Program-made: the position numbers and the translations under genes
From: Pseudomonadota bacterium
Lineage (GTDB): Bacteria > Desulfobacterota > Binatia > Binatales > Binataceae
DNA: 64,000 nt
Direction: 5' to 3'
NCBI GenBank assembly: GCA_021324755.1
Contig: JAJPIL010000006.1
Location: 49,109 to 113,108 of the forward strand
Shown: piece by piece, positions 13,258 to 57,528 of the stretch
Numbering within the stretch: position 1 is the first letter of the stretch
Layout of the letters: each line of letters begins with the position of its first letter
The notes under the pieces: generated by a model
The model's input: the letters and a program-made list of their open reading frames with translations, nothing else
Database searches by the model: none
What the model was told of the DNA's origin: nothing

Positions 13258-13259
13258 TC

Positions 13260-14336: not shown

Positions 14337-14551
14337 AAAGCTGCTCCAGAGCCTTCCAAAATTTCCACGACTTAAAGCGGCTTAAACGCCAAAGCGGCTC
14401 GGTGCCATTGTTGGCAGTTCGCTTCCATTATTGACCGCGCAAATCCGCCGCGATCCCTCCAGTTTAAACTTGCATTGCCGCAAAAGCTCTCTATTCGCAG
14501 GAAACTCTACCGCCTTTATGACTTCTCTTGCTCGTAAATGGGTTACTAAAT

Positions 14552-19595: not shown

Positions 19596-19609
19596 ACTCT
19601 TTGGCTTAC

Positions 19610-19760
19610 GCCTTTTGCGCTGTCATTGTAAAGCGCAACGGCAGGCTCACGAGCTAAGGCGCGCTCTTTCCCGGCGCTGAGTGCCCAGACCGCGGCATTA
19701 TAAACCGCATAGCTCATATTTAAACGTTTCCCCTGGCATCGTAAGGGTGAGGCGAGCGAG
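19610..19760 (-). promoter_or_regulatory. Candidate cobalamin (B12) riboswitch in 5-prime leader of the BtuF-like gene
   Basis: On the minus strand, in order: GATGCC, AGGGGAA, GGTTTATAATGCC, GCGGTCTGGGCACTCA, GGGAAAG, GAGCCTGCC. These loosely match the ordered conserved blocks of the cobalamin riboswitch (GGTGCC, AGGGAA, GGTGAAATCC, CCCGCCACTG, GGGAAGG, AGCC..CCTGCC). The B12-box match is imperfect. Confidence 0.3.
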
Positions 19761-19933
19761 ATAACCCTATGCGCCTTTTATATCTGGGATAAGTCCGTGA
19801 AGTGCTAACTTCAGGCGGCGAGCGTCTTTTACCTTTGTCCCTGAAGCCCGTGAACTAAAATCTCGTTACAATAGCTTTGAGAATGTTTGGTTAGGATCTA
19901 GCGCTAAGGATCGAGCGGAGGTTTGCTTCGGCG

Positions 19934-20227
19934 ATGGCAACACTTAGTCAAGATGTAATCGAGAGTAAGCTCAAGGAGCTTCCCGGATGGGAGTACAAAG
20001 ATAACGCTTTAAAGAAGCTCTTTCGCTTCAAGGAGTTTATGGAAGGGTTAAAATTCGTAAATCGCGTCGGCGAAATTGCCGAGGCGATGGACCACCATCC
20101 AGATATTTACATCAATTACACTCGGGTGACCTTTTCCTGTACCACGCATAGCGAGCACGGCGTGACCGAGAAAGACTTTAAGCTGGCCGAGGAAATTGAG
20201 AAACTCTACGAAAAGGTAGCTCAATAG
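19934..20227 (+). CDS. phhB: 4a-hydroxytetrahydrobiopterin (pterin-4-alpha-carbinolamine) dehydratase
   Basis: 97 aa; EGxxFxxxxGxxAEAMDHHPDIYINYTRV signature of PCD/DCoH; visibly AT-richer than neighbours. Confidence 0.85.
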   Translation: MATLSQDVIESKLKELPGWEYKDNALKKLFRFKEFMEGLKFVNRVGEIAEAMDHHPDIYINYTRVTFSCTTHSEHGVTEKDFKLAEEIEKLYEKVAQ

Positions 20228-20427
20228 CGTGCACGTAGGCTTCATCAGGCAATCTGACACACCTGGAGCCATAAAATAACTCACGCGCCGAGCGGACCTC
20301 CACCGAGCTGGTTAGGTCTCAGGGAAGCATCGGTGAGCTTTCGTTGGTGTTTGCCGGTCAAGCCACGTGCGATCGCTGCTCTGCGTTTAAACAGGTGAGT
20401 GCGAGAGAGAAAGGAGAAAGGGTTGTC

Positions 20428-31065: not shown

Positions 31066-31200
31066 TGACGGTGTATCCCCTTTTTGGGTTTAGCAAGTCG
31101 CCTCTGATTAATTCTGGTAAACCAATTTCGTGATCTGCAAGAGAGATGTTAGCGTCGAATTATTTTGGACCTTTCTTTGGAAGGGCAGAAGGTCCGCCTT

Positions 31201-33357: not shown

Positions 33358-33376
33358 GGGGGTTGAACCGATTTCG

Positions 33377-34585
33377 TCAGCGAGCTACCAGACGCGCTGC
33401 AGCTTGCGCCATATATAGCTCTTCGTCCAAGGTAACAACGTAAGCTTTTATCGGTGAATCTGGTCGGCTAATCATCGCCTCGCGGCCGTTGGCAGAGCGA
33501 TTTGCCTGTGCGTCAAGAATTAAACCAAGTGTCTCAAGGCCACTGCAAATTTTTGCCCGTACCTCGTCGGCGTGCTCGCCGATTCCCCCGCCGAAGACGA
33601 CGGCATCGACACGCCCCAGTACGGCCATCTAGGCACCAAGGTACTTGCGAGCACGATAAGCGAACGCCTCGATCGCCTGCGCCGCGGCTCCCAACGGGTC
33701 GCGGCTCGCCGCCGCAAGAACCTCGCGTATGTCGTCTGAAACGTTCGACAGTCCCAGAAGGCCCGACTCGTGATTCAACATTCGGTCAATCTCTTGCACT
33801 GTCATTCCCTCGCTGGCCAGATACAGGAGAAGACCGGGATCGACGTCACCTGCCCGGGTTCCCATCATCAGCCCTTCGAGCGGCGTAAGTCCCATCGAGG
33901 TGTCCACCGAGCGGCCTGCCGCTATCGCCGTGACCGAGCATCCACCACCGAGCTGCATCGTGATAAGGTTAAGCTCCTCCTTAGGCTTTTTCATCAGCGT
34001 GGCGGTTCGTTCGAGCATGTAAGCGTGGCCGATACCGTGAAAGCCGAAGCGGCGGATCCCATACTTCTCGGACACTCGGCGCGGGATGGCATAAAGACGC
34101 GCATGGATGGGAATCGTATGATGAAATGCTGTATCTGGCACCACTACTGGAATTGCGTTTGGAAGCTCTTGTCGAACCGCCTCCAACGTTGCAAGCGCGG
34201 CCGGATTGTGCAGAGGCGCAAACTTGCTCGCCTCTCGCAGGGCGCGGATCGTGTCGTCGTCTGCTAAAGTAGCGTCTTTAATTTTCTCGCCGCCGTGAAC
34301 AACCCGATGTGCTACGACATCGACGTCAACCCTTCTCAGAACCGAGCGGAGCCATTGTAGCGCGTCCAACGCCGCGCCTTGATGGTCGGTTATAGAAAGC
34401 TTTTGTCTCAGTTCTTGGCCGCCTGCTGTTTTCAAAACGCGCTGACACTGGGGGTGGCCGAGGTCTTCGTAATGTCCCAGCGCGATAGTTGTTCGCTCAA
34501 AGTCGACCTGACGACTCAGCTCCAGAAGCTCAAACTTTAACGAAGAGCTGCCGCAGTTAAAGACAAGGGTTTTTAGCGGGCGCAT
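33377..34585 (-). pseudogene. ackA: Acetate kinase interrupted by an in-frame TAG (amber) codon at 33629-33631
   Basis: N-terminal part (MRPLKTLVFNCGSSSLKFELL ... ARKYLGA) ends at TAG. The next codon is ATG and continues in the same frame (MAVLGRVDAVVFGGGIGE...), which is the C-terminus of acetate kinase. The stop replaces the conserved Tyr of the KYIGAY motif. The ORF track shows a long spurious N-terminal extension, and the real start is the ATG at about 34585. Confidence 0.7.
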
Positions 34586-34593
34586 CGTTCTGC

Positions 34594-37326
34594 TTACAAG
34601 TCTAGGGGGACTTCCAGCAGTGGCGGCTTGAGTCGCATTCTTCCGTCGATAACTATCGCTCCTTTTCCGGAGGGCAACACCTTGACTGGGTTTAAATCCA
34701 TCTCGGTCATCTCCGGGACAACGTCTATCAAAGCCGAGACGCGCTGAATAACAGCAACCAGGGCTTGCCTGTCGGCCGCGGGAGTTCCTCGGTAACCGTC
34801 GAGCAGTGGTGCGCTGCGCAAATGGGTTATCATCTCGGCGGCGTCGATGTCGCTTACCGGGTGAAGCCGGAATGAGACATCTTTCAGCAGTTCGACGAAC
34901 ACGCCGCCCAGGCCACATACTACCAGGGGGCCAAAGGTCGGATCTGTCGTTACGCCTACCAGCGCCTCGATTCCCTGGTCGATCTGTCGTTGTAGAAGCA
35001 CGCCAGTCAGCGGTTTGCCAATCGCAGCCATGCGCTCTTGCAGTGTTTTGACCGCTTGTGCAACGTCTTGCTCGCAGACAAGACCCATTATGACGCCACC
35101 GACGTCGCTTTTATGCACCAACCCGGGTGCGATCGCCTTGGCCACCAGAGGATACCCCAAGCGTCTGGCAACTTCAGGCGCTTCCTCGGGCAAAGTTTGC
35201 TCCGCTTCGACGCATGCGATACCGGCGGCACGCAAAATGGTAGCAAGGTCTCGCGCTTCAACCCAAACCGGCTCGCTTGCGTCTTTCAAGACTCGTTCGA
35301 CTACAGCGCGCACAACCTCGCGCGCAAAGCGCGAAAGGCTCATGATTTGACCCCTGGGGCGCTTACGCCAGCAAGCGTACCGCCATGCGCTAGCCAGCGC
35401 CAAGGCGGCGCCTTCGGGAAAGTTGTAAACTGGCAGACGTCCCCGAGGACCGCTGCTCAGTGCTTCGGGTGCTCCTGCGGTGGAAAGGAATACCGTGATC
35501 ACCGGTTTCTCAGAGGGTACCTTGCCGGCACCGGCAGCTATTCCGACCGCGATCTGCTCCGGATTGGTTACCATCGGGGGTACGTACAGCACTACCAGGG
35601 CATCGACCTCCGGGTCGTTACCAACTAACGCGATGGCTCGCTCGTAGTCCTCGGCGGAGGCCGAGGCTGTCATGTCGATCGGATTGGCAAGTCCAGAGCG
35701 GGGCGGCAAAAAGGCGCGCAAAGCCTCAAGCGTCGGCTCGGATAGCGTGGGAAGCACAAGCCCGTGGGCTTCACAAGCGTCGGCAAGCAAAATCCCTGGA
35801 CCACCCGCGTTAGTAACGACTCCGATTTTTGGCCCCGGCGGTATCGGCTGCGAGGAAAGCATCGAAACCGCGTCGAAGAGCCCCTCGAGCGTGTCGGTGC
35901 GAATCACTCCGGCCTGCTCGAACAACGCGTCCACTGCGACGTCGAGGTTGGCCAGTGCGGCCGAATGGCTTGATGCGGCTCGACTGCCAGCAGCCGACCG
36001 TCCCGACTTCACCGCGACCACAGGCTTTCGACGCGCAACTTCGGGCGCAAGCCGCGCAAATTTGCGGGGGTTACCTACGCTTTCCAGGTAAAGCGCGACC
36101 ACCGACGTTTGCGGATCATCCATCCAATACGCCAGCAAATCGTTGTTGGATAAGTCGGCGCGATTGCCAGCCGAGATGAAAGTCGAAAAGCCGAGCTGAT
36201 GGGCCCGCGCATAGTCCAAAATAGCTATGCCCAGCGCTCCGCTCTGGGTGAACATCCCGATATTTCCTGGTAATGGTTGCACGGGGGCAAAGGTCGCGTT
36301 GAGGCGAATTTCTTGATCGGTGTTGATGATGCCCATGCAATTGGGACCCACCAGGCGCATGCCGCTTGCCCTTGCCAAACTGGCGATTCGGCGCTCAGCT
36401 TCGGCACCCTCAGCCGAGACTTCGGCGAAGCCTGCGGTCAACACGACGACTCCCTTGACGCCCACTTTGCCGCACTCGACGATTACGCGCTCTACCGCTT
36501 CCGCAGGAACGGCAATCAGGGCTAGATCAACTTCGCCCGGAACCTCACCAATGGAGCGGTAGCATTTGAGACCTTGGATCTCTTGGGCATTGGGATTGAT
36601 CGGATAGATCGGTCCGCGAAAGCCGTGGCGGACAAGGTTCGCAACTAACGCGCCGCCGATTTTACTCTCGTTGCGTGAAGCTCCTATAACCGCAACTGAC
36701 TTCGGGCGCAGAAGCCGCGCGACGCTTCGCGCGGCAGCGATGCGCTCGCGCGTCTCGACCGCCTCGATCGATTGCGGAGTCTCGCTGGTTGAAATCCACA
36801 AATGGATAACGCCGGACCGGCTGGAACGCCGTACCTTGAAGCCGCTTTTGGCGAACACTTCAAGCATACGGTTGTTCTCGCCTAGAACGTCGGCTTCAAA
36901 TTCGCTAATCCCGTTGGCCCGAGCGATTCGCGCAAGATGGGTGAGCAGCAGAGTGCCGATTCCCCGGCCTTGATACTCGTCGAGCACAGCGAAGGCAACT
37001 TCGGCACGCTTGGGGTCGCCTCCTCGAATGTAACGCCCGACGCCAATGAATTCCTCGCGGTCGCCTTTTTTCAAGGTTGCTACGAGGCCGACGTGGTTTA
37101 CGAAGTCGAGATTTGTAAAACGGGTCAACTCCTCTTCGGTCAGCTCCTTCTTGGGCCCGAGGAAGCGGTAGTAGATCGACTGGGGGCTAAGCCGTTTGAA
37201 ATGCTCGTAAAGTTTGGCTTTGTCTTCTGGCTGAATCGCGCGGATGTGGATCGAGCTTCCGTCGCGCAAAAGCTCTTCCACCGCGTAGGCGCGCAAATCG
37301 GCCGCTGACGTTAGCTGCTCTGTCAC
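34594..37326 (-). CDS. GNAT acetyltransferase fused to ADP-forming acetyl-CoA synthetase (NDP-forming acyl-CoA synthetase alpha+beta); Pat-like protein lysine acetyltransferase architecture with N-terminal GNAT
   Basis: 910 aa; N-terminal GNAT (QGRGIGTLLL), then CoA-binding/succinyl-CoA-synthetase-alpha-like domain (VAVIGASRN...GPNCMGI), then ATP-grasp (PLVAKAIAPGLVHKSDVGGV). Confidence 0.75.
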   Translation of the reverse strand: MTEQLTSAADLRAYAVEELLRDGSSIHIRAIQPEDKAKLYEHFKRLSPQSIYYRFLGPKKELTEEELTRFTNLDFVNHVGLVATLKKGDREEFIGVGRYIRGGDPKRAEVAFAVLDEYQGRGIGTLLLTHLARIARANGISEFEADVLGENNRMLEVFAKSGFKVRRSSRSGVIHLWISTSETPQSIEAVETRERIAAARSVARLLRPKSVAVIGASRNESKIGGALVANLVRHGFRGPIYPINPNAQEIQGLKCYRSIGEVPGEVDLALIAVPAEAVERVIVECGKVGVKGVVVLTAGFAEVSAEGAEAERRIASLARASGMRLVGPNCMGIINTDQEIRLNATFAPVQPLPGNIGMFTQSGALGIAILDYARAHQLGFSTFISAGNRADLSNNDLLAYWMDDPQTSVVALYLESVGNPRKFARLAPEVARRKPVVAVKSGRSAAGSRAASSHSAALANLDVAVDALFEQAGVIRTDTLEGLFDAVSMLSSQPIPPGPKIGVVTNAGGPGILLADACEAHGLVLPTLSEPTLEALRAFLPPRSGLANPIDMTASASAEDYERAIALVGNDPEVDALVVLYVPPMVTNPEQIAVGIAAGAGKVPSEKPVITVFLSTAGAPEALSSGPRGRLPVYNFPEGAALALASAWRYACWRKRPRGQIMSLSRFAREVVRAVVERVLKDASEPVWVEARDLATILRAAGIACVEAEQTLPEEAPEVARRLGYPLVAKAIAPGLVHKSDVGGVIMGLVCEQDVAQAVKTLQERMAAIGKPLTGVLLQRQIDQGIEALVGVTTDPTFGPLVVCGLGGVFVELLKDVSFRLHPVSDIDAAEMITHLRSAPLLDGYRGTPAADRQALVAVIQRVSALIDVVPEMTEMDLNPVKVLPSGKGAIVIDGRMRLKPPLLEVPLDL

Positions 37327-37757
37327 CTCTATGCTACTCCGCTGCTACCAGAGGTCTTTTCCCCAGTTAGCTCGGCGAAACGTTGTGCTAACCGATTATA
37401 CCATTTTGCTATTGCGTGATAGTGTAAAAAACTTCGCAAGTTAGGGAATGCGAACTGAGTAGTGTGAACTGCCGTGATTCAAAAGAACGTCGTTTTTTGC
37501 GCGCCATGAATGCAATGTAAATGCGATGCGGACCCTGAGCGTTGAGCGATGGCGACGCGGTGCCAGTGCAGCGGTATTCGGTGGGAAACAAAGAAAGAGG
37601 AAGTGGCGTGTCGATCGTCGTCACACAAAGCCGAGCTTTGCCCGTGATGTCGCCATCGCCTGGGTTATTGCGGTCCGCGCTTCCAACTCGAAACTGCTGA
37701 AAGCAGACGTCCGAGACGTCGAACGCGTGAAGCCTGCGAGCACGGGCCGGAATTGCT

Positions 37758-38933
37758 TCATATTCCTAGCGCCTTGAGCCCGGGCAATTCGCGCCCTTCG
37801 AGAAATTCGAGTGTGGCTCCGCCTCCGGTTGAAATGTGCGAGAATTTGTGCGCCCACGGCTGGTTTTTGACGGCCGCGGCCGTGTCACCGCCTCCCAGGA
37901 CGCTGAAAACGCCAGGATTGTTAGCCAAGGCTTCACCGAATCTGAGCGTGCCTTGTGCAAAAGCGGGAATCTCGAAAAAGCCCAGTGGACCGTTCCAAAC
38001 TACGGTCTTAACGCCTTTGATTCGTTGGACGAACTTCTCGACCGACCGCGGCCCGATGTCGAGCGCCATCTTGTCGGCCGGAATAATCGCTACCGTCTCG
38101 ACCCCGGCGTCGGCGCTGGGTTGGTAGGCTACTACGTGGTCTTCGGGCAGGACGAACTCTACGTGATGGCGTCGAGCTTCGTTCATAAGCTCTCGCGCCA
38201 AATCGAGCTTGTCGATCTCCACACGCGACTTTCCAACCTCGACTCCCTGCGCTCGCAAAAACGTGTAAGCCATCGCGCCGCCAACCAGCAAAGCATCAAC
38301 CCTGCTCATCAGGTTTCGGATCACGCCTATCTTGTCGGACACTTTGGCGCCGCCCAACACCGCGACGTACGGCCGTGCGGGATTGTCAAGCAACGCACGT
38401 AGCGCCTCTACCTCGCGCATCATCAGCAGGCCCGGCGCCCGTTCAGGCAGAAACTCGGTAACGCCCACGGTAGACGCGTGCGCGCGATGGGCCGTGCCAA
38501 AAGCGTCGTTGACGTAGATTTGTTTGCCAGCGGCTAGGGCGCGAGAAAATTCCCGGTCGTTAGCTTCTTCCCCGGGATGGAAGCGAAGATTTTCGAGCAG
38601 AAGCGTCTGGCCTGGCTCGAGCTCCGCGGTCATCCGCTCGACCTCGGGACCGACACAGTCCGGAGCGAATTTCACTTCCGAGCCAAGCGCTCGTGCGAGG
38701 TATTCGGCGACCGGCGCCAGGCTAAGTTCGGGGGCGTGCCGACCTTTCGGCCGCCCCAGATGCGAGCAGGCAACCACGGCCCCAGACTGAGAGAGAATAT
38801 AGCGTATTGTGTCGAGGCTTGCGTCGATTCGGCTGGTGTCCGATATTCGACCATCGTTCAGTGGAACGTTGAAGTCAACCCGTAACAGAACCTTTTTATT
38901 CCTCAAATCCAAATCTTGAAGTCGCGTAGCCAT
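37758..38933 (-). CDS. pgk: Phosphoglycerate kinase
   Basis: LDLRNKKVLLRVDFNVP N-terminus and conserved PGK motifs throughout; ATG at 38933 with GGGAGA upstream (ORF track start 38957 is a TTG). Confidence 0.9.
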   Translation of the reverse strand: MATRLQDLDLRNKKVLLRVDFNVPLNDGRISDTSRIDASLDTIRYILSQSGAVVACSHLGRPKGRHAPELSLAPVAEYLARALGSEVKFAPDCVGPEVERMTAELEPGQTLLLENLRFHPGEEANDREFSRALAAGKQIYVNDAFGTAHRAHASTVGVTEFLPERAPGLLMMREVEALRALLDNPARPYVAVLGGAKVSDKIGVIRNLMSRVDALLVGGAMAYTFLRAQGVEVGKSRVEIDKLDLARELMNEARRHHVEFVLPEDHVVAYQPSADAGVETVAIIPADKMALDIGPRSVEKFVQRIKGVKTVVWNGPLGFFEIPAFAQGTLRFGEALANNPGVFSVLGGGDTAAAVKNQPWAHKFSHISTGGGATLEFLEGRELPGLKALGI

Positions 38934-39151
38934 CCTCCAAATTTCTCCCGCTAGCAAAGTTCCGAAAAGCTAACGACCAAGGTCTTTTGGAAATTTTATT
39001 TGTCGCGCTCAAGCTTCGGCAGAATTCAAGCGTCGAAGTGGTAATGGCAAATCTTCGAAACCTGGACCGTAGTTGTTTTTAACACATAAAAGGCTTACAT
39101 CCTTTTTCAGTTCTGCACGACTTTCTGCGAGCCTCCAGCCGAACAATACCG

Positions 39152-39595
39152 TCAAGCGGCGGATTTGCTGGTGATCGTTTCGGGTCGGACTGTGAGGACG
39201 GGACAGGGTGCTTCTCGAATCACGCGCTCCGCCACACTGCCTAAAAAGAAATGAGCGAGACCCGAACGGCCGTGCGTCGACATGACAATTAGATCTGGCA
39301 TCAGGTTCTTTGCGGTATCCAGTATTCCCTGAGCAGGATCTCCCACGCATACGATCAGTTCGCGCTTAAACCCTTGTGCAAGTCGTTGAGCAATGGCCTC
39401 GAGCCGGGTTCTCGCTTCTTGCTCAGCGGCTTTGTATGGTTCGAGCGCCCACTCCATAGGAGCCAGTACTACGGGCACCACGTGAAGCAAAATAAGTGTT
39501 CCGCTCTCTTTTGCAACCAGTTTTTCCGCCAGCTTAAGCGCGGCTACGGAACCTTCCTCAAAGGCTACCGGACAAAGAATTTTGTTCCACTCCAT
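39152..39595 (-). CDS. Universal stress protein (UspA family)
   Basis: About 148 aa from internal ATG; ATP-binding motif region MSTHGRSGLAHFFLGSVAERV. Confidence 0.8.
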   Translation of the reverse strand: MEWNKILCPVAFEEGSVAALKLAEKLVAKESGTLILLHVVPVVLAPMEWALEPYKAAEQEARTRLEAIAQRLAQGFKRELIVCVGDPAQGILDTAKNLMPDLIVMSTHGRSGLAHFFLGSVAERVIREAPCPVLTVRPETITSKSAA

Positions 39596-39939
39596 CGACT
39601 GTTCCCCGTCGGCTCGATGATACTTCCGCGCCGGAAAAGAAAGCGTTGTTTTGGCGCCGCTGAGTAAGTTATTGTCTCTTGCTAGAGGTAGCAGTGGCAA
39701 CATTTTGAGGTTAGATTCGGCATCCAATAAGGTCGTTCAGGACCGCGGCTAGACGTGGCCGACGCGATTGCGCGCCGCTTTTCTCGCGCCCCGAGCAGCG
39801 AAAGCTTTCCAGTTATACGGCGTGGTTTGTCAGAAATCAGGCCAAGCGCGGCTTGCTTTGCCCAAGAATTCGAGTTTCTGACGAGAAACTTTGAATCGCT
39901 CAAGAAAGAGTAGCGACGAATCGCAGGGTCTTTTCGTTG

Positions 39940-39967
39940 GGTGCGTGTGTTTGTGCGTGCGTGCGAG
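39940..39967. repeat. Alternating purine-pyrimidine (GT/GC)n tract GGGTGCGTGTGTTTGTGCGTGCGTGCGAG in usp/glgA divergent intergenic region
   Basis: Read directly from sequence. Confidence 0.5.
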
Positions 39968-40151
39968 TAGCCAGCGCGTTAGGATTCTTAGGGTTGGACT
40001 GATGCGGCGAGAAGTTAGCTAGAGCCGTGCGGGGGTTGCAGCAATAAAACCTGCGACAATCAGACGCTTTATCGATTGGAAAGCCGCGAGCCGGTACATC
40101 TTGTAGACCCCACGTGTTAGTCCGCTTTCTTCAAAGAGGTCAAGGTAGGGC

Positions 40152-41624
40152 ATGTACATTGTGATGGTCGCCACCGAGTGCGCTCCGGTGGCAGCTAACG
40201 GCGGCCTTGCTGACGTAGTTTTTGGCTTAAGCCGCGAGCTTGAAATTCGAGGCAATGCGGTCGAAATCATCCTGCCGAAGTACGATGTCTTGCGGTACGA
40301 CCACATCTGGGGTCTGACGCTTGCATATGGCGATCTGTGGGTGCCATGGTACGGCGGAGCAATAAAGTGCGCGGTGTGGTTTGGATTCGTTCACGGTCGC
40401 AAGTGCTATTTTATCGAGCCCTATTCGCAGGACAACTTCTTTAACCGGGGCACTTTGTACGGATGCCCGGACGATGCTATCCGGTTCGCGTTTTTCAGTA
40501 AGGCAGCCCTCGAGTTTATGCTAAAGGCAAATAAACGTCCCGACGTAATTCATTGCCATGATTGGCATACCGGCTTGGTGCCTGTCTTGCTGTTCGAGAT
40601 GTACAAGTTCTGTGGCATGCCGAATCAGCGGGTCTGCTACACCGTGCACAACTTTCGCCATCAGGGTGTAGCCGGACAGGAGGTTCTTTGGGCGACGGGC
40701 CTTGGTCGGCCCGAGTATTTTATGTCTCCTGATCGTTTGGCCGATCCTGCGAACCCGACTCGCGTCAATTTTCTCAAGGCTGGTATCGTGTACTCTAATT
40801 TTGTCACCACGGTGTCCGACCGCTACGCTTGGGAGGTTCGCCATACGGATCTAGGATGTGGCTTGGGGCATACGCTTTACCTCCACCGCAACAAGTTCGG
40901 TGGAATTCGCAACGGCGTCGACTACGACGTCTGGAACCCTGAGATCGACCGGCTTATTCCCCATCGCTACGGTATCGACACCGTTCAAAACAAGTATCTC
41001 AACAAAGAAGCTCTGCGCGATCGCTTGTGGTTGCGCAAGGATTTCAAGCCGATCGTAGCGTACATAGGGCGACTCGACGCTCAGAAAGGAGCGCACCTGA
41101 TTCGACACGCCCTTTGGTACAGTCTTGCCAACGGCGCGCAATTCATCTGCCTTGGCTTTGCTCCCGATCCGGCTATAGGCGGCGAGTTCTTGCGGCTGAA
41201 ACAGCAGCTGAACGACAATCCCGACTGCCACCTCGAGTTGCGATTCGACGAGGCGCTTGCGCATCTTATTTATGCGGGCGCGGACCTAATCATTGTTCCT
41301 AGCAATTTCGAGCCATGCGGTTTGGTCCAGATGATTGCGCTTAAGTATGGAACCGTGCCCGTGGTACGCGCGGTGGGAGGATTGGCTGATACGGTTTTTG
41401 ATCGCGACTATTCGGACCGTCCAATGGAGGAGCGCAACGGGTACGTTTTTTATCAAGGCGACCCGCCCGCTATCGAGTCTGCGCTAAAACGGGCCTTGGG
41501 CCTGTGGTTTCACTATCCGGAGGAATTTCGAGCGTTGATGCTCAACGGGATGCGGTGTAATTACTCGTGGGAGTTGCCAGCGCAGCATTATTTGAACGTG
41601 TACGAGTACATAAGGCACAAATAG
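40152..41624 (+). CDS. glgA: Glycogen synthase (GT5, ADP-glucose type)
   Basis: N-terminal ECAPVAANGGLADVV (KxGGL-like) motif; 490 aa. Confidence 0.85.
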   Translation: MYIVMVATECAPVAANGGLADVVFGLSRELEIRGNAVEIILPKYDVLRYDHIWGLTLAYGDLWVPWYGGAIKCAVWFGFVHGRKCYFIEPYSQDNFFNRGTLYGCPDDAIRFAFFSKAALEFMLKANKRPDVIHCHDWHTGLVPVLLFEMYKFCGMPNQRVCYTVHNFRHQGVAGQEVLWATGLGRPEYFMSPDRLADPANPTRVNFLKAGIVYSNFVTTVSDRYAWEVRHTDLGCGLGHTLYLHRNKFGGIRNGVDYDVWNPEIDRLIPHRYGIDTVQNKYLNKEALRDRLWLRKDFKPIVAYIGRLDAQKGAHLIRHALWYSLANGAQFICLGFAPDPAIGGEFLRLKQQLNDNPDCHLELRFDEALAHLIYAGADLIIVPSNFEPCGLVQMIALKYGTVPVVRAVGGLADTVFDRDYSDRPMEERNGYVFYQGDPPAIESALKRALGLWFHYPEEFRALMLNGMRCNYSWELPAQHYLNVYEYIRHK

Positions 41625-41710
41625 TCAATCTGAAGGCCGCCGAGTGAAGGTGACTTGCAATCTAGCCAAGTGGATGGTTGTGGGATGGCAAAAGCGAGGG
41701 ATGTAGTGAG

Positions 41711-43174
41711 ATGAGCGAACTGCCAGAATGCATTGACGGGCTGCCAAATATCTGCGGGCAAGAGCAGTTAATCGAGCAGGCGATCGCGGAAAGCCGCGGT
41801 CAACCGGTCTTTCTACCCACCAGCAGAATAGACTTTTCGAGGATCCGCGCGGCGGCGGCTATAGCGCTGCACATGCATCAGCCACTAATCCCGGCTGGAG
41901 GTCCAGATCTTCGTACTGCCGCAGTTATCAGCAATTTGAAGTACATGATGGACAACCAGCACATAGGCGACAATCACAACGCGCCCGTTTTTCACTGGTG
42001 TTACAAGCGGATGGGCGAGTTCATTCCGCAGCTTGTACGCGAGGGGAAGGAGCCGCGCGTGATGCTGGATTACTCGGGCACGCTTTTGTACGGCCTGCGA
42101 GCGATGGGGCTCGACGACGTGTTCGAGAGTTTAAAGACAATCACGCTCAACCCCGAATATCAGCGAACGGTGGAATGGCTGGGATGCGCCTGGGGTCACC
42201 CGGTTGCGCCGTCAACTCCGACGCAGGACTACCGCCTACACGTGAAAGCCTGGCAGCACCATTTTGCGGCGATTTTTGGTCTTGACGCGCTAAAGCGCGT
42301 GCGAGGCTTTTCACCTGCCGAAATGGCTCTGCCGAACCATCCTGACGTAGCCTACGAGTTTGTCAAAACGCTCAAGGACTGCGGCTACCAATGGGTTTTG
42401 GTGCAGGAACACACCGTGGAGAGGCCGGAAACCGGCGGCGGCCCCGAGCGCAAACATATTCCCCATCGTCTGCGCTGTCGCAACTCACAAGGTGAGGAAG
42501 TTACCATCATCGCCATCATCAAGACCCAAGGCAGCGATACCAAGCTTGTTGGTCAAATGCAGCCCTACTACGAGGCCAAGGGATTGTCGCGGTGGGAGCT
42601 GGCGGGCAAGCTGGTGCCTCCGCTTGTGACGCAAATCGCTGACGGGGAAAACGGCGGCGTGATGATGAACGAGTTTCCACCGAAGTATATCGAGGTTGTG
42701 CGGGAATGCTCCCATTCCGATGTCCCCTTGATGAACGTGACCGAGTATCTCGAGCATCTGAAAGCCCTTGGCATCGACGAAAAAGATTTTCCCGAGCTAC
42801 AGCCAGTGTTGCAAAAGCAAATCTGGGAGCGCTTTAAGCCCGGCGACGGGCCACAGCGCCTTGCCGAGGTGATCGAGCAGATCAGGCGCGAGGACTCACG
42901 GTTTACGATGGAGGGAGGGAGCTGGACGAACAATATTTCCTGGGTACGTGGCTATGCTGATGTAATCGGGCCGATGGAGAAGGTGAGCTCGCTTTTTCAC
43001 GAAAAAGTTACAAAAAAAGGCTTCCCAACGAACGAATATCGTTATCGCAACGCGCTATTTCATCTTTTGACCAGCCAGACAAGTTGTTATCGCTACTGGG
43101 GACAGGGAATTTGGACGGAATACGGTCGCGAGATCTGCAGACGCGCCGAGGAAATTATCCTTCACGACTTTTAA
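41711..43174 (+). CDS. Glycoside hydrolase family 57 protein (alpha-glucan-active; branching enzyme/amylase-like)
   Basis: IALHMHQP motif (GH57 conserved region I) near N-terminus; located between glgA and glgB; start at ATG 41711 with GAGGGA RBS (ORF track 41678). Confidence 0.65.
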   Translation: MSELPECIDGLPNICGQEQLIEQAIAESRGQPVFLPTSRIDFSRIRAAAAIALHMHQPLIPAGGPDLRTAAVISNLKYMMDNQHIGDNHNAPVFHWCYKRMGEFIPQLVREGKEPRVMLDYSGTLLYGLRAMGLDDVFESLKTITLNPEYQRTVEWLGCAWGHPVAPSTPTQDYRLHVKAWQHHFAAIFGLDALKRVRGFSPAEMALPNHPDVAYEFVKTLKDCGYQWVLVQEHTVERPETGGGPERKHIPHRLRCRNSQGEEVTIIAIIKTQGSDTKLVGQMQPYYEAKGLSRWELAGKLVPPLVTQIADGENGGVMMNEFPPKYIEVVRECSHSDVPLMNVTEYLEHLKALGIDEKDFPELQPVLQKQIWERFKPGDGPQRLAEVIEQIRREDSRFTMEGGSWTNNISWVRGYADVIGPMEKVSSLFHEKVTKKGFPTNEYRYRNALFHLLTSQTSCYRYWGQGIWTEYGREICRRAEEIILHDF

Positions 43175-43237
43175 GGCTTGAAGACGGTGTACTGGTGCGC
43201 CGGATCATTCAATAGAGCTCACGGCAGATCTGCGAGA

Positions 43238-45502
43238 CTACTTCAATGCGGCAGTGTCCTCTGGGGGAACCGAGAACCACAGTACCGTCAGCGGAGGCAA
43301 AGTAAGCGATACCGAGTAAGGATACCCGTGATGGGAAACTGGCTCTGCCTCGACCGCGCCGGCGTTGCCGTTGTTGCTGCCACCGTAAACCGCGCTGTTA
43401 GTATTGAGCACTTCCCTGTAGGTTCCTAGTTTCGGGACGCCGACTCTATAACCTTCGCGCAGCGCGCCGGAGAAGTTGCAGACGCAAAGCAGGCGTCTGC
43501 CGCTCGAGGGAGCTATTCTCAAAAAGGCGATTACATTTGAGTCCGCGTCGTCAGGTTCAACCCATTTAAAGCCCTCCGGTTCGACGTCAGCTTCCCATAA
43601 CGCAGGTTCTGACTTGTAGATCGCGTTGAGGTCGCGAACCAACGATTGGAGGCCACGGTGATCCGGCTCATCGAGCAAGTGCCAATCCAGACTCTCGTTG
43701 TAATTCCATTCTCGCCATTGGCCGAATTCGCCCCCCATAAAAAGGAGCTTTTTCCCAGGTCGCGCCCACATGTAGCCGTACAACGCGCGCAGGTTTGCGA
43801 ATTGGCGCTCGCGGTCCCCAGGCATTTTGGCCAGCAGAGAGCGCTTGCCGTGCACCACCTCGTCATGCGAGAGCGGGAGGATAAAGTTTTCGCTCCAAGC
43901 GTAGAGAAAGCCAAACGTAAGATTTCGGTGGTGGTAGCGCCGGTAAATCGGATCCTTTGAAAAATATTCCAGCGTATCGTGCATCCAGCCCATGTCCCAC
44001 TTGAAACCAAAACCCAAGCCGCCGAGGTAAGTGGGGCGACTCACTCCGGGCCACGCCGTGGACTCTTCGGCTATCGTCATGATACCGGGGTAGCGAGCGT
44101 ACACCTGCTCGTTGAACCGTTTCAAGAAGGCGATCGCCTCCAAATTTTCGCGGCCCCCATACTCGTTCGGTATCCATTCGCCTTCGCGCCGAGCGTAATC
44201 GAGGTAAAGCATCGAGGCGACCGCATCGACCCGAAGGCCGTCGGCGTGATACTCCGAGAACCATTTGTGAGCGCTCGAGGTAAGAAAAGTGACTACTTCG
44301 TGGCGACCGTAGTTGAAAATGTACGTTCCCCATTGGGGATGCTGTCCTTTGCGAGGGTCGAGATGCTCGTAAAGAGCAGTCCCGTCGAACCAACCGAGGC
44401 AGAATGAGTCTTTAGGAAAATGGCCGGGAACCCAGTCGAGAATTACTCCGATACCGCGGCGATGCAGGTAATCGACAAAATAACGAAAGTCGTCTGGCGC
44501 TCCGTATCGAGCAGTGGGGGCGAAGTAACCGCTAACCTGATATCCCCAGGAGCCGTCAAATGGATGTTCCATAATGGGCATGAGCTCGACGTGGGTAAAG
44601 CCCATGTAGGTGAGATAATCGGCAAGCTCGTGCGCCATTTCGCGGTAGGTTAGAGGACGCTCGCCTTTTTCGCCTGCCCGGCGCCAAGAGCCGAAGTGTA
44701 TCTCGTATATGGAGATCGGGCTGCGTAAAGGGTCGCTCTTGGCTCGCTTTGCCATCCAGTCCTGGTCCGAGAAGGTGTATTTGGAGCGGTAGACGATCGA
44801 AGCGGTCGCTGGCGGTTTTTCCATGGCGCAGGCGTAGGGGTCGGTTTTGAGCGCGACCGTATTGTCCGCGGTCTGAATTTCGTATTTATATAGGGCGCCT
44901 TCACCCACGCCGGGAATGAACAATTCCCACACGCCTGAGCTTCCTAGCACGCGCATCGGATAAACCCTTCCGTCCCATCGGTTGAAGTCGCCGACGACGC
45001 TTACTCCCTTGGCATTTGGCGCCCATACCGCAAAACTAGTTCCTTCCACACCGTCAAGCACTCGGACATGGGCTCCGAACTTTCTGAAGGCTTCTTGATG
45101 TTTGCCTTCATTGAACAGATAAAGGTCCATTTCGCCCAACGTGGGAGGAAAGCTATAGGGGTCGCGCGGGACGATCACTTTGCCATCGGGGTATTCGATC
45201 TCGAACCGGTAGGGCAGAACGTCGCGCCAATCGGGCAACGCGATCTCGAAAAGGCCTTGGGGATTCAATAACTTCATCTCGCGCGGTGCCATGCCCGGGG
45301 CACTGATAAAAACGCGGACCGCACCCGGACGCATCGTGCGCACTACGATTCCGTTCTCTGTGCGGTGTGGTCCCAAAATCGCGTGGGGGTTGGTGTGTCT
45401 CAAGGCTAGCAACAATTTTATCTGATTCTCGAGGTCAGACGACTTCGTGACTTGGACGGCGGACGCTGACTTTGTGCAGTGATTCCTATTTGTGTCCGGC
45501 AT
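43238..45502 (-). CDS. glgB: 1,4-alpha-glucan branching enzyme (GH13)
   Basis: 754 aa; CBM48 and GH13_9 catalytic motifs ([24 protein letters not shown]...). Confidence 0.9.
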
Positions 45503-52475: not shown

Positions 52476-53939
52476 TTAAAGGAGACCGTTGGCTTTAACC
52501 CAATTTTCGGTTTTATAAAGGGCAGCGGCGAGGCGTGCCAGTAAAAGGTCGATTTCGCGCTCTTTGATGACCAGTGGAGGAGAGAGACAGATAACGTCGC
52601 CAGCCATTCGCACGAGCAACCCCTCCTCGAGGGCGGCTTCGCGCAAAAACGCACCGACCCGCGCCTGGATGGGGAAAGGCTCACGCGTCTGTTTGTCTCG
52701 GACAAGTTCCACCCCGACCATCAGACCTTCGCCGCGGATGTCTCCGACGATTGGCGAGTCCTTGAGCTTTTGCAGCCCCGCGATTAACCGTTCTCCCATG
52801 ACGCGAGCTCGTTCTGGCAACTTCTCGTTTTCGATAATTTCCAGAGTTTTTAGTCCCACCGCGCAGCTCAGCGGATGGCCAGTGTTGGTAAAGCCGTGCC
52901 ATATGGCAAGACCCTCTCTACCGCTTCGGATCGCCTGGTATAATTTCTCGTCGACTATCACCGCTCCAAGCGGCGCATAGCCGCTACTGATTCCTTTTGC
53001 GCAGGTTATGATGTCGGGAAGCACGTCCCAGTGTTCGCAAGCGAACATCTTGCCGGTGCGCCCGCCCGCGGTTATGACTTCGTCGGCGACGAAAAGAACG
53101 TCGTACCGGTCGCATATTTCGCGCACGCGCGTCCAGTAGGCCTTCGGGGCGGGAATCACGCCACCGGAGCCGATAATCGGTTCGGCGATAAAAAACCCGA
53201 CCTTGTCCGGTCCTTCCTGCAGGACAGCCTCTTCGAGCAAGTCAGCACATTTGAGCGTGCATTCCTGATGGTCCCTGCAGAACTCGCATCGATAACGGTA
53301 AGGCGGCTCGATATGGCGCACTTTCAAGCCGGGCGGGCCGTAGTAGCGGTGAAAACGCTCAATCCCGGTCAATGCTGCGGCACCAAGAGTCGAGCCGTGG
53401 TAGCCAAGTTTGCGGGCAATGGCGACGGTTTTGTCGGGCTTGCCACGCAGCGCAAAATAAAGACGCGAAAGTCGGATTGCCGACTCGTTCGACTCTGACC
53501 CGCCACTGGTCAGAAGTACACGCTTGAGCGAGCCCGGCGCTAACGAAGCAAGCTTGGCGGCAAATCGGATTGCCGGCGGAGTTGTGACGTTAAGCAAATT
53601 AATGTGGAAGGAAAGCGTCCTGAGCTGACGCGCTACGGCAGAGGCAACGTCAGTGCGACTAAAACCGAGGTTGACGTTCCAAATACCGGCGGCCGAATCG
53701 AGGTATTTGCGACCATTGACGTCCCATACAAATACCCCTTTGCCGCGAACGAGAATAAGCGGTTCCCTTCTATAAACTTCGTCGAGCGGAGCGAAACTGG
53801 GCAGCCTGTGCGCTCGGTCGAGCTCGACCAAGATATCGCGCTCATTTTCGCTTTGTACCGCGCTCCTTCTAGAGCGAGTATTTGTTGGTTTATACGACGT
53901 CTCCATAAACGTGAGAATACGCGCAGCAAAAAATTCCAC
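52476..53939 (-). CDS. Class III (omega) pyridoxal-phosphate aminotransferase
   Basis: AT-III motifs (SGSEANE-like SGGSESNESA, DEVITAGGRTGKMFACEHW with PLP Lys); N-terminal start uncertain. Confidence 0.8.
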   Translation of the reverse strand: MEFFAARILTFMETSYKPTNTRSRRSAVQSENERDILVELDRAHRLPSFAPLDEVYRREPLILVRGKGVFVWDVNGRKYLDSAAGIWNVNLGFSRTDVASAVARQLRTLSFHINLLNVTTPPAIRFAAKLASLAPGSLKRVLLTSGGSESNESAIRLSRLYFALRGKPDKTVAIARKLGYHGSTLGAAALTGIERFHRYYGPPGLKVRHIEPPYRYRCEFCRDHQECTLKCADLLEEAVLQEGPDKVGFFIAEPIIGSGGVIPAPKAYWTRVREICDRYDVLFVADEVITAGGRTGKMFACEHWDVLPDIITCAKGISSGYAPLGAVIVDEKLYQAIRSGREGLAIWHGFTNTGHPLSCAVGLKTLEIIENEKLPERARVMGERLIAGLQKLKDSPIVGDIRGEGLMVGVELVRDKQTREPFPIQARVGAFLREAALEEGLLVRMAGDVICLSPPLVIKEREIDLLLARLAAALYKTENWVKANGLL

Positions 53940-54477
53940 GCCATTTAGACGAGGTGATGCGCTGTGTTTTATGCGAGCTTACGCAATGGCGCACCACGCT
54001 GGCAACCGAAGCGGACCTGAGGCTGCATATTACACATTATTATGGCTAAGCGTGATTCCCGAACACAGCTTCGATGTAAAGCGCCTCGAGCAGCACGGAC
54101 CCCTGCGTACTAGATGGCGACGGCAAAGCAATCGGCGCCCGCAGGTAGCGCTTTTTGGACGCTTGGCTGCCAATTGGCAAACTTAACCGAGAGCGGCTTA
54201 TATCCTCCCGTAGGTGGCAAGCGATAGAATAACCTAGTTGAACAAAAGGCGCAGTTACGCGTCCTAGCTTTGAGGGCTTGAGCGGAAAAGGGCTGTCGAA
54301 TCTGGGAGTTTGCGCTGTTTGTTGTGACGTTTCTGTAACAATGGTAAGCGCATGTCAGGCTACGGGACGACGATGAGTTTGAGGCTCTACAAGATGGATA
54401 ATGAGGGTGATGCGGCAGTGATTTCGCCCATGTGACGACGCCATCTCTCGGTGCCTTGGAACAAGCGTAGCGCGACG

Positions 54478-54499
54478 AAATTTATAGAAATTTATAGAT
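54478..54499. repeat. Tandem direct repeat AAATTTATAGA x2 flanked by two copies of GAACAAGCGTAG and a CTTGTTC-agc-GAACAAG hairpin; candidate operator/promoter module for the pentose-phosphate operon
   Basis: Read directly from sequence (GAACAAGCGTAG at about 54459-54470 and 54531-54542; hairpin 54521-54537). Confidence 0.45.
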
Positions 54500-54660
54500 T
54501 CGATCCTGTGTAGGCTAGGGCTTGTTCAGCGAACAAGCGTAGACCCTCAAGACCGGAGGAATGGAGCGAGCAAGCTAGAAACCCCAGGCTCGTCGACCAG
54601 GCTGGGAATTTCACAGCGATCGGCGAGTGTCGAGTTTTCACGAGTGAGGAAGGCAAGCGT

Positions 54661-57528
54661 ATGGCAAATCCTATTCGAGAGGTGACCAAGTACGGTCAGA
54701 GCATATGGTTCGATTACATTCGCCGGGGGCTTATTACGTCGGGTGAGCTCAAGCGGATGGTGGAAGAGGACGGGCTTTTGGGGGTCACTTCCAACCCGGC
54801 CATTTTTGAGAAGGCGATCGCCGGAAGCAGCGACTACGACAGCGCGATGAGGAAGCTGGCTGGGGAAGGTCTGACTTCTGTCAAGGACATCTACGAGCGG
54901 CTTGCGATCGAAGACATACAGCTTGCCGCTGACGTTCTTTACTCTGCTTACCAGAAGACTGGTGGGCGAGATGGCTTTGTAAGCCTCGAGGTATCGCCCC
55001 ACCTAGCCAACGACACCGAGGGCACGATTCAAGAAGCAACGCGCCTGTACGCCGCTGTTAACCGTCCCAACGTAATGATCAAGGTGCCGGGCACACCGGC
55101 TGGCTTTCCCGCCATTACAGAGCTTATTTCCCGTGGCATAAACGTCAACGTGACCTTGCTGTTCAGTATCGCGGCCTACGTAAAGGCCGCCGAGGCGTAC
55201 ATGGCCGGGCTTGAGGTGCTTGCCCAGAAAAGCGGCGACCTCAGCAAGGTTGCGAGCGTGGCGAGCTTTTTCTTGAGCCGCATCGACACGCTGATCGATG
55301 ATCGGCTCGGCCAGATGCTGGATAAAGAGCGCGACCCGGACCGACGGGCGCTTCTCAAAAGCCTGGTTGGAAAAGTGGCGATTGCAAGCGCACGTATCGC
55401 GTATGCACATTATCGCGAGCTTGTGGCAACCCCGCGCTGGCGCGCGCTAGCCGAAAAAGGAGCACGATCACAGCGTCTTTTGTGGGCGAGCACCAGCGCA
55501 AAGAACCCAAAGTATTCGAAAACCAAGTACGTCGACGAACTGATAGGCCCCGACACTGTAAACACGCTTCCCGCGGAGACATACAACGAATTTAAGGCTC
55601 ATGGCAGGCCGCGGCCAGCTTTGATCGAGAACTGGGTAGAAAAGCTGGAGGAGGCCCAGCAGGTTTTCCATGCCTTGGAGACTGTCGGTATTTCGTTGAA
55701 CGAGGCTACCGATCAACTTCTTGCCGACGGGGTCAAAAAATTCAATGACGCGTTCGACCAGTTGCTGGCAGCCATCGATAAAAAGCGCGCCTCGATGGTC
55801 GCGGGCGCGCCTGAGCGGCGACTTTACGTTTTAGGCCAAGCGGAGAAAGCCGTAAAAGAAGCGCTTGACGATTGGCAAAACAACAGCAAGGTGCGACGTC
55901 TGTGGGAGGGCGACGCTTCTTTGTGGACAAATACTGACGAAGGTCATTGGCTGGGATGGATACACGTCGTTGACGGCCAACGCGAACATAGCGAGCACTT
56001 AAAGCGCATCGCCGAGGACGTCAGGCAGGCCGGCTTTAAGCATATCTTGCTTCTAGGCATGGGCGGCTCGAGCCTGTGTCCCGACGTGCTGAGTCGCACG
56101 TTCGGTAAAATTGACGGCTACCCGGAGCTACTGGTGCTGGACTCGACCGTGCCTGCGCAGGTGGCCAGCTTCGAACGGCGCGTCGACCTGCGAAGCACCC
56201 TTTTTATCGTATCCTCGAAATCTGGCACCACGACCGAACCGAACGTTTTTAAACAATATTTCTTTGACCGGGTAAGCAAAGTTGTCGGCGCGAACGAGGC
56301 TGGCTCGCGTTTCGTTGCGATCACCGACCCAGGCACACCGCTTCATCAGTTGGCAAAGCGGGAGCGCTTCCGCCACATCTTTTTTGGCGTGCCGAGCATC
56401 GGAGGACGTTACTCGGCGCTTTCGAATTTTGGGATGGTACCAGCGGCGGCGATGGGACTGGACGTTATCCGTCTGCTCGACCGCGCCGAGGTGATGTTGC
56501 ACGCTTGCTCACCCTATGTGCCGACGCACGATAATCCGGGCGTGACGCTGGGAGCGATTCTTGGCACGCTCGCACGTCTGGGACGCGATAAGCTGACCCT
56601 GGTTGCTTCGCCAAGCATCGCAAGGCTCGGTGCTTGGCTTGAACAGTTGCTTGCTGAATCGACCGGTAAAGAGGGCAAGGGAATCATACCGATTGACGGC
56701 GAAGAGTTGGGTCCGCCGGAAGTTTACGGCGATGACCGAGTCTTCGTATACTCGGCACTCGAGTCGGATGACACCGCAAGGGACGAAGCGGCTCTCACAG
56801 CGCTTGAACGTGCCGGCCATCCCGTGGTGCGCCTAAAACTTGCCGATTTGTGGGATTTGGGGCAGGAATTCCTGCGCTGGGAGTTCGCCACTGCGGTTGC
56901 CGGTTCGATCCTCGGCATCAACGCCTTTAACCAGCCAGACGTCGAGGCCAGCAAGCTCGCGACGCGCAAACTAACCGCCGCCTACGAAAAAAGCGGGAGC
57001 CTCCCGGAGCAGACGCCTTTGTTGCGTGACGGGGAGCTGAGCTTGTTCGCCGATCCCGACAACGCTCAGGCGCTCGGGGTCGGGCGCAACGGTCGCGACG
57101 TTGGGGACGTACTGGCTGCCCACATCGCGCGACTTCGGCCACGCGACTACTTCGCAATTAACGCTTACATCGAGATGAGCGACGAGACTTTCGCCGAGCT
57201 TCAGGCGATTCGTCACGCGGTTCGCAACGCCAAGCGCGTAGCTACGACCGTCGGCTACGGCCCCCGCTTTTTACACTCCACGGGCCAACTCCACAAGGGC
57301 GGCCCCAACACCGGAGTGTTTTTGCAGATAACGTGCGATGATGCGCACGATTTGCCTATCCCTGGGCAGAAGTACACGTTCGGCGTGCTCAAGCGGGCCC
57401 AGGCGGAGGGCGACTTCCAAGTGTTGGCTGAACGTGGTCGTCGCCTTCTACGCGTTCATCTGGGGGCCGACGTAATAGCTGGTCTTAAGCGGCTGCGCGA
57501 AATCGTCGAGCGCGTAACGACCAAATAG
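54661..57528 (+). CDS. Bifunctional transaldolase / glucose-6-phosphate isomerase
   Basis: 955 aa; N-terminal transaldolase (SIWFDYIRRGLI, TSNPAIFEKAI), C-terminal PGI domain. Confidence 0.85.
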   Translation: MANPIREVTKYGQSIWFDYIRRGLITSGELKRMVEEDGLLGVTSNPAIFEKAIAGSSDYDSAMRKLAGEGLTSVKDIYERLAIEDIQLAADVLYSAYQKTGGRDGFVSLEVSPHLANDTEGTIQEATRLYAAVNRPNVMIKVPGTPAGFPAITELISRGINVNVTLLFSIAAYVKAAEAYMAGLEVLAQKSGDLSKVASVASFFLSRIDTLIDDRLGQMLDKERDPDRRALLKSLVGKVAIASARIAYAHYRELVATPRWRALAEKGARSQRLLWASTSAKNPKYSKTKYVDELIGPDTVNTLPAETYNEFKAHGRPRPALIENWVEKLEEAQQVFHALETVGISLNEATDQLLADGVKKFNDAFDQLLAAIDKKRASMVAGAPERRLYVLGQAEKAVKEALDDWQNNSKVRRLWEGDASLWTNTDEGHWLGWIHVVDGQREHSEHLKRIAEDVRQAGFKHILLLGMGGSSLCPDVLSRTFGKIDGYPELLVLDSTVPAQVASFERRVDLRSTLFIVSSKSGTTTEPNVFKQYFFDRVSKVVGANEAGSRFVAITDPGTPLHQLAKRERFRHIFFGVPSIGGRYSALSNFGMVPAAAMGLDVIRLLDRAEVMLHACSPYVPTHDNPGVTLGAILGTLARLGRDKLTLVASPSIARLGAWLEQLLAESTGKEGKGIIPIDGEELGPPEVYGDDRVFVYSALESDDTARDEAALTALERAGHPVVRLKLADLWDLGQEFLRWEFATAVAGSILGINAFNQPDVEASKLATRKLTAAYEKSGSLPEQTPLLRDGELSLFADPDNAQALGVGRNGRDVGDVLAAHIARLRPRDYFAINAYIEMSDETFAELQAIRHAVRNAKRVATTVGYGPRFLHSTGQLHKGGPNTGVFLQITCDDAHDLPIPGQKYTFGVLKRAQAEGDFQVLAERGRRLLRVHLGADVIAGLKRLREIVERVTTK

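Follow-up and report, generated by a model that had tools for sequence, protein, structure and literature searches.

A candidate operator and promoter region with direct and inverted repeats upstream of the tal-pgi operon of an uncultured bacterium

Introduction

What controls the oxidative pentose-phosphate operon of an uncultured bacterium, and do the repeats ahead of its first gene take part in that control? The make-up of the operon is unusual, with a tal-pgi fusion together with opcA and glk. If the repeats form a real operator, they would give a first handle on the control of this pathway in such an organism and a concrete probe to fish out the regulator. In this study, we analysed the window, that is, the whole 64-kb stretch of DNA that contains the operon. 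We believe that the repeats are reasonably described as a candidate operator/promoter region, which is an ordinary kind of feature and a hypothesis for a single genome.

Results

Spacer and flanking genes

The repeats lie in a spacer of 721 bp between two divergent genes, as the initial annotation had described. The genes and the signal next to the spacer are as follows.

52476-53939, minus strand: class-III aminotransferase gene, divergent from tal-pgi; the ATG at 53908 is an alternative start
54646-54653, plus strand: Shine-Dalgarno-like GAGGAAGG, 7 nt ahead of the tal-pgi ATG, read from the sequence
54661-57528, plus strand: tal-pgi fusion gene for a transaldolase/phosphoglucose-isomerase of 955 aa, first gene of the operon

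The order of the operon is tal-pgi, tkt, zwf, opcA, pgl, and glk. Pfam recognized transketolase, glucose-6-phosphate dehydrogenase, OpcA, and 6-phosphogluconolactonase in the genes downstream of tal-pgi, and the glucokinase gene (glk) starts at 63361, which agrees with the assignment to the oxidative pentose-phosphate pathway. The description of the genome as GC-rich was overstated: the GC contents of the window and the spacer are 56.4% and 53%, respectively, which is only moderately GC-rich.

A spacer of approximately 720 bp is unexceptional in this genome because several other spacers of the window span 680-1240 bp. These ORF-poor spacers at 8126-8808, 14337-15159, 19596-20343, and 33358-34593 are 683, 823, 748, and 1236 bp long, respectively, and may hold unannotated small genes or RNAs, none of which reached the Rfam gathering score. 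Other carbon genes of the window include pgm and manC at 11902-14336 and a cluster at 28558-45502, which encodes a DUF3417-type glucan phosphorylase, an isoamylase-type debranching enzyme, a GNAT/acyl-CoA synthetase fusion, pgk, a universal stress protein, a glycogen synthase, a GH57 enzyme, and a branching enzyme. A stretch of 57 bp (53680-53736) in the 5' coding end of the aminotransferase gene holds three copies of the 8-mer CAAATACC or its complement. On the minus strand, a hairpin resembling a terminator, GCGCTACCTGCGGGCGC, is found mid-spacer (54135-54151), and its T-rich tail is weak; two hairpins of this sort were found against 1.4 expected, which is the chance level.

Repeat cluster

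The 84-bp cluster at 54459-54542 consists of three copies of one 12-nt unit in the order direct, inverted, direct, and sits 120-200 bp upstream of tal-pgi, the first gene of the operon. Its features, together with a partial copy at the start codon, are as follows.

54459-54470, plus strand: repeat copy 1, GAACAAGCGTAG, exact, complementary to 54520-54527; proposed auxiliary half-operator
54477-54498, plus strand: AT-rich tandem, GAAATTTATA twice plus GA (2.2 copies), period 10, with two A3T3 tracts in helical phase
54515-54527, plus strand: inverted repeat copy, CTAggGCTTGTTC, left arm of the palindrome, with the core GCTTGTTC at 54520-54527
54531-54542, plus strand: repeat copy 2, GAACAAGCGTAG, exact, right arm of the palindrome
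54654-54661, plus strand: third partial copy, the 8-mer CAAGCGTA, reaching one base into the tal-pgi start codon

The initial annotation had reported a duplicated 12-mer, and both copies of GAACAAGCGTAG are indeed exact. They flank the AT-rich core on its two sides as claimed, and their spacing, given there as about 73 bp, is 72 bp from start to start with 60 bp in between. The hairpin CTTGTTC-AGC-GAACAAG is perfect at 54521-54537, also in line with the annotation. Its arms are really 8 bp long (GCTTGTTC-AGC-GAACAAGC, 54520-54538), and the symmetry extends outward as CTA-gg-...-g-TAG over 54515-54542. The inverted copy agrees with the 12-mer at 11 of 12 positions with one indel. The 8-mer GAACAAGC is present three times, at 54459, at 54531, and as an inverted copy at 54520. 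The identity of the direct repeats reaches 4 nt past the palindromic core.

The tandem between repeat copy 1 and the inverted copy had been described as an 11-mer. The tandem exists; its unit is the 10-mer GAAATTTATA, and the two 11-mers share one base. No other stretch of 22-27 nt in the window is as AT-rich, and the tandem may serve as a promoter core or a bend. CAAGCGTA occurs 6 times in the window against approximately 2 expected, with 3 of these in the spacer, and the significance of this excess is uncertain. With two corrections, the tandem period of 10 and the moderate GC content, the earlier observation was essentially correct.

Two Logan assemblies and one ENA assembly all carry the same sequence for the cluster; it is not an assembly artefact because these assemblies are independent. 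Over 11 kb, a 396-kb ENA assembly that is independent of the window departs from it only by three SNPs, at 60861, 60864, and 61119; all of them lie in zwf, and two are 3 bp apart.

Tests against chance

The chance expectation was obtained from order-2 Markov shuffles of the window itself. Exact direct repeats of at least 12 bases within 100 bp were found once against 0.43 expected per window, and tandems with at least 12 matched bases and a period of 4-30 once against 0.06 expected per window; both are the cluster's own. Perfect 7-bp hairpins are ordinary (38 in the window, 34 expected). Of 1500 shuffles, 56 (3.7%) held a 12-mer direct repeat along with an inverted 8-mer copy, a figure inflated by low-complexity cases. 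Each feature of the cluster alone is unremarkable or mildly unusual against the shuffles. The co-location of the direct/inverted/direct triple and the only such tandem of the window in 84 bp is non-random.

Match to the HexR-type operator consensus

Studies have shown that HexR, a repressor of the RpiR family, controls zwf/pgl/glk in Pseudomonas, and that its footprint-derived operator consensus there is 5'-TTGT-N7/8-ACAA-3' (PMC5489143, PMC5902321). HexR represses zwf, pgl, eda, edd, and glk (PMC5489143, PMC5902321, PMC5343134), and in other gammaproteobacteria zwf-pgl is co-regulated by HexR with glk, edd, eda, and pykA (PMC5343134). The palindrome of the cluster contains one site that fits this consensus.

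54522-54536, unstranded: TTGT-TCAGCGA-ACAA (TTGTTCAGCGAACAA), fits the HexR-type operator consensus TTGT-N7/8-ACAA

The background of the exact pattern is 0.012 per kb in 1.6 Mb of fetched sequence, which gives approximately 0.009 expected in the 721-bp spacer. The site is the sole match in the window and the sole match among 124 tal-pgi upstream regions, the other 123 regions having none. Several motif families had already been considered when the match came to notice, which makes its p-value optimistic, and the pattern specifies only eight bases. No second exact site was found in the window or its flanks (approximately 82 kb). Sites with one mismatch resemble each other in the pattern only; the spacers of the window hold 7 against approximately 3.7 expected, which is not significantly enriched. 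A HexR operator would be expected in the promoter region of zwf, pgl, edd, eda, or glk, with overlap of the -20 to +40 zone. The HexR-like site is placed upstream of an operon with zwf, pgl, and glk, and the scan gave no consensus promoter. We consider the match functionally apt and one independent point in favour of the operator reading, which is plausible.

Promoter candidates

No sigma-70 site (TTGACA-N16-18-TATAAT, at least 9 of 12 matches) was found in 53700-54800. By eye, the best promoter candidate is GCGACG-N17-TAGATT (54472-54500), which has 7 of 12 matches and is under the threshold of the scan.

54495-54500, plus strand: TAGATT, weak candidate for a -10 hexamer, 17 bp downstream of GCGACG (54472-54477), read by eye

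The earlier proposal of paired operators around a promoter stands in part: repeats lie on both sides of an AT-rich core upstream of the operon, but there is no consensus promoter between them, no conservation in the nearest relatives, and no further copy in the window or its flanks.

Search for the regulator

As the initial annotation had stated, no regulator gene is adjacent: Pfam found no transcription-factor domain in the approximately 45 ORFs of the window. An RpiR gene (HTH_6 plus SIS) was likewise found by Pfam in no window ORF of at least 180 aa, and none is present in the flanks L166 and L169, which add 10 kb on the right of the window and 8 kb on its left. RpiR/HexR genes are absent over about -62/+19 kb and beside tal-pgi in every fetched locus, and tblastn with E. 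coli YebK/HexR gave nothing at E<=1 in the window, the flanks, or any fetched locus. The nearest regulatory genes found in either direction are a pair, a sigma-54 activator gene (AAA+ and HTH_8, no receiver domain; L166:14331-15637), approximately 8.7 kb downstream of pgl, and the response-regulator gene next after it.

Comparison with relatives

Relatives were sought in 185,579 species genomes, JGI metagenomes, and 5.8 billion proteins, and apart from the same population no Tal-Pgi above 74% identity was found in these scans. The closest orthologous loci are L001, L002, L163, and L165, with Tal-Pgi of 67-74% identity, and the divergent layout of aminotransferase and tal-pgi is kept in L002 and L163. 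The window spacer has nothing in common with the spacers of these four loci beyond chance 8-10-mers. The check for conservation in orthologous spacers thus went against the annotation, with the repeats absent in all four nearest relatives, and the cluster is apparently lineage-specific. A check for further copies of the motif near carbon genes also had a negative outcome in the window (including pgk, pgm, and the glycogen genes) and the flanks; no other copy of the 12-mer or the palindrome exists in the window and flanks (approximately 82 kb) or in 165 related loci (1.6 Mb).

Both the conservation and the enrichment negatives are weak: the relatives stand at 67-74% Tal-Pgi identity, the search covered approximately 82 kb, and the loss of an operator at such a distance would be unsurprising. 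Because these comparative and copy-search negatives are weak, the operator reading is plausible rather than shown.

The spacers of three relatives have elements of their own. A block of approximately 90 nt, GTTGCGATyGrrYTTGAA...GCyTTCrAC, is common to L001:5759-5860, L002:5786-5885, and L163:4770-4870; it lies 170-230 nt upstream of the tal-pgi start and can fold as a long hairpin. These three loci come from related metagenome bins, with Tal-Pgi mutually 80-84% identical. The block is absent from the window and the other fetched loci and has no Rfam match. A weak MAFFT alignment of 54366-54430 to this block was rejected as homology, since neither an nhmmer profile nor a covariance model matched in the window. 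A second short block, TAACTAAGGCTACAC.GT..CCGTC, is common to L002:5675-5715 and L163:4683-4720 (approximate) on the aminotransferase side of the spacer.

Excluded identities

Several other identities of the region were rejected. For a known RNA family, a search of 53800-54800 at E<=10 gave only a spurious mir-137 (E=1.3), and Rfam had 0 matches at the gathering score in the whole window. An intrinsic terminator or attenuator was rejected: the hairpin 54515-54542 is followed by ACCCUCAAGACC with no U-run, and the scan listed no terminator there on either strand. A hidden gene or pseudogene was rejected because six-frame Pfam found no domain, tblastn against 165 related loci found nothing, and the small ORFs are noise-like.

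A replication origin does not fit, as the GC skew is mostly positive and does not change sign at the spacer, and its cumulative curve rises over the whole window. The local skew change at 54200 tracks gene orientation, and no DnaA-box cluster was seen by eye in this test. A MITE or IS insertion with target-site duplication, or the scar of a mobile element, is unsupported: the 60-bp segment between the repeats, which starts with CGCGACG and ends with TGTTCAGC, is without terminal inverted repeats, neither the window nor the loci hold another copy, and the spacer resembles no plasmid or phage. A dispersed palindrome of the REP/BIME type was rejected, as the palindrome has a single occurrence in the 64-kb window and the 1.6 Mb of related loci together. 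The motifs of Rex, LexA/Cheo box, parS, CRP/FNR, OxyR/LTTR box, and IHF have the wrong spacing or symmetry by eye.

Discussion

Proposed control site

In this study, we tentatively believe that the cluster at 54459-54542 is a protein-binding control site for the tal-pgi/tkt/zwf/opcA/pgl/glk operon, a reading to which we give somewhat less than an even chance. The sequence shows the repeats themselves, the non-random way in which they cluster, where they lie, and the fit to the consensus; protein binding, promoter position, looping, regulator identity, and effector are inferred. A dimeric helix-turn-helix repressor would bind the palindrome GCTTGTTC-AGC-GAACAAGC (54520-54538) as the main operator, and the upstream arm copy at 54459-54470, 72 bp or approximately 6.9 helical turns away, would be an auxiliary site. 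The two phased A3T3 tracts could serve both as the AT-rich region where the promoter melts and as a segment that bends, so that occupancy of both sites would enclose or block the promoter. Taking TAGATT as the -10 element would place the palindrome at about +13 to +31 and copy 1 near -40. Such an arrangement would be the classic geometry of promoter occlusion or looping and would resemble the HexR positions reported at Pzwf and Pedd (PMC5489143, PMC5902321). The TTGT-N7-ACAA form makes a sugar-phosphate-responsive repressor of the HexR/RpiR type the closest working analogy, and such a repressor would be released on the build-up of a pathway intermediate.

Possible neutral origin of the repeats

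The main rival, possible and of lower probability, is that duplication and template switching on a local scale left the cluster as a neutral by-product in a spacer under weak constraint. Slippage would have produced the 10-mer tandem, a template switch (quasi-palindrome) the hairpin, and a duplication or insertion scar the 12-bp repeat, with no regulatory role. The lineage-specific character of the cluster, which is conserved in no relative examined, is consistent with such an origin, and so are the lack of a second locus with the motif in the window, the flanks, or the 165 loci, the mild unusualness of the single features, the long spacers elsewhere in the window (683, 748, 823, and 1236 bp), and the missing promoter consensus in 53700-54800. 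However, a neutral origin needs three independent rare events in 84 bp at the place where a control region is expected. The intervening 60 bp lack terminal inverted repeats and resemble no plasmid, phage, or other locus, and the operator consensus that the palindrome fits is apt in function. We favour selection for binding over neutral mutation because the identity of the direct repeats runs 4 nt beyond the core, because simple slippage does not account for non-adjacent 12-bp repeats with 72 bp from start to start, and because three rare features coincide where the control site of the operon is expected. We hold the neutral explanation to be somewhat less likely than the control site.

Leader RNA and enhancer alternatives

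Two other explanations are less likely still. One of them, which we regard as quite improbable, is a 5' leader RNA switch, in which 54514-54527 pairs either with copy 1 (hairpin 54459-54527) or with copy 2 (tight hairpin 54515-54542), and a factor that chooses the fold alters mRNA stability, processing, or elongation. Both folds are predicted, with -20.8 kcal/mol for 54455-54530 (z -2.2) and -13.2 kcal/mol for 54510-54545 (z -2.9), and the three-segment layout is attenuator-like. But these good z-scores of sub-fragments follow trivially from the repeats themselves. The folding of the leader RNA, for the cluster and for the whole putative leader, is no better than shuffles (z -1.4 and -0.3, respectively), the z-scores reach significance on neither strand, and on the minus strand the left half folds worse than shuffles. 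Because no U-run follows, neither of the two hairpins qualifies as an intrinsic terminator; the ribosome-binding site lies over 100 nt off and is not sequestered, and there is no Rfam match in the whole window.

The other is an enhancer-type layout, with the repeats as upstream sites for sigma-54 or another activator and the tandem as an IHF or bending site; it can point to a weak -24/-12-like TGGGAA-N5-CAGC at about 54605-54619, with GG-N10-GC spacing at about 54606-54619 and the palindrome approximately 100 bp upstream, and to the sigma-54 activator encoded approximately 8.7 kb downstream of pgl, but it is very unlikely, as the -12 element lacks the conserved TTGC and is a chance-level match by eye, the AT-rich tract lies between the repeats and not between the repeats and the putative promoter, and sigma-54 control of the pathway is not established.

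Significance

As judged from the sequence, the cluster is most plausibly an ordinary repressor binding site, a lineage-specific palindrome with an auxiliary copy that flank an AT-rich, promoter-like core. There is a slim chance that the three copies of GAACAAGCGTAG make up a control element of an uncultured lineage that has not been described before, perhaps a HexR-like sugar-phosphate repressor system outside Proteobacteria with an unlinked regulator and a looped promoter, or that they act as a three-segment leader-RNA switch that tunes the operon. Even a real operator would leave the general understanding of gene control as it is, since a palindromic operator that brackets an AT-rich promoter together with an auxiliary site is textbook knowledge.

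Comparison with known systems

Repressors of the LacI, GalR, and DeoR type loop DNA through pairs of main and auxiliary operators. The cluster is similar to these systems in its full palindrome and a second copy tens of bp off, at a near-integral number of helical turns, which bracket a promoter-like AT-rich segment. It differs in that the upstream copy is a single arm and no palindrome, and the looping, the regulator, and the promoter are only putative here. Phased A-tract bends and AT-rich UP or -10 regions occur in promoters. Similarly, two AAATTT tracts exactly 10 bp apart lie in the most AT-rich stretch of the window; in contrast, there are only two tracts here, with no consensus -35/-10, and the bend is putative.

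GntR of Pseudomonas aeruginosa, a LacI-family regulator, recognizes the operator AC-N-AAG-N-TAGCGCT with gluconate and 6-phosphogluconate as effectors (PMC5489143, PMC5902321). Copy 1 with its flank, ACAAGCGTAGCGCG, has AC, AAG, and TAGCGC in the same order and with the same total length, and the two effectors are relevant to the pathway. However, the internal spacing is off by one base, 9 of 12 specified positions agree, and copy 2 is without TAGCGC; the resemblance is likely coincidental.

HexR of Pseudomonas is the closest comparison. Both systems have the pseudo-palindrome TTGT-N7/8-ACAA, here in the putative control region of an operon that includes three core genes of the HexR regulon, zwf, pgl, and glk. 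In Pseudomonas, hexR is divergent from zwf, whereas no RpiR/HexR gene is nearby here, and no second site was found in approximately 82 kb. The host belongs to an uncultured lineage, and the relatives nearest to it by tal-pgi are metagenome bins with labels such as Deltaproteobacteria and Binatia. Neither edd nor eda is present in the operon, which makes KDPG, the phosphosugar that releases HexR, doubtful as the effector here. The arms of the palindrome differ from the HexR operator as well: they have a perfect symmetry of 8-12 bp, which is much longer than the 4+4 consensus.
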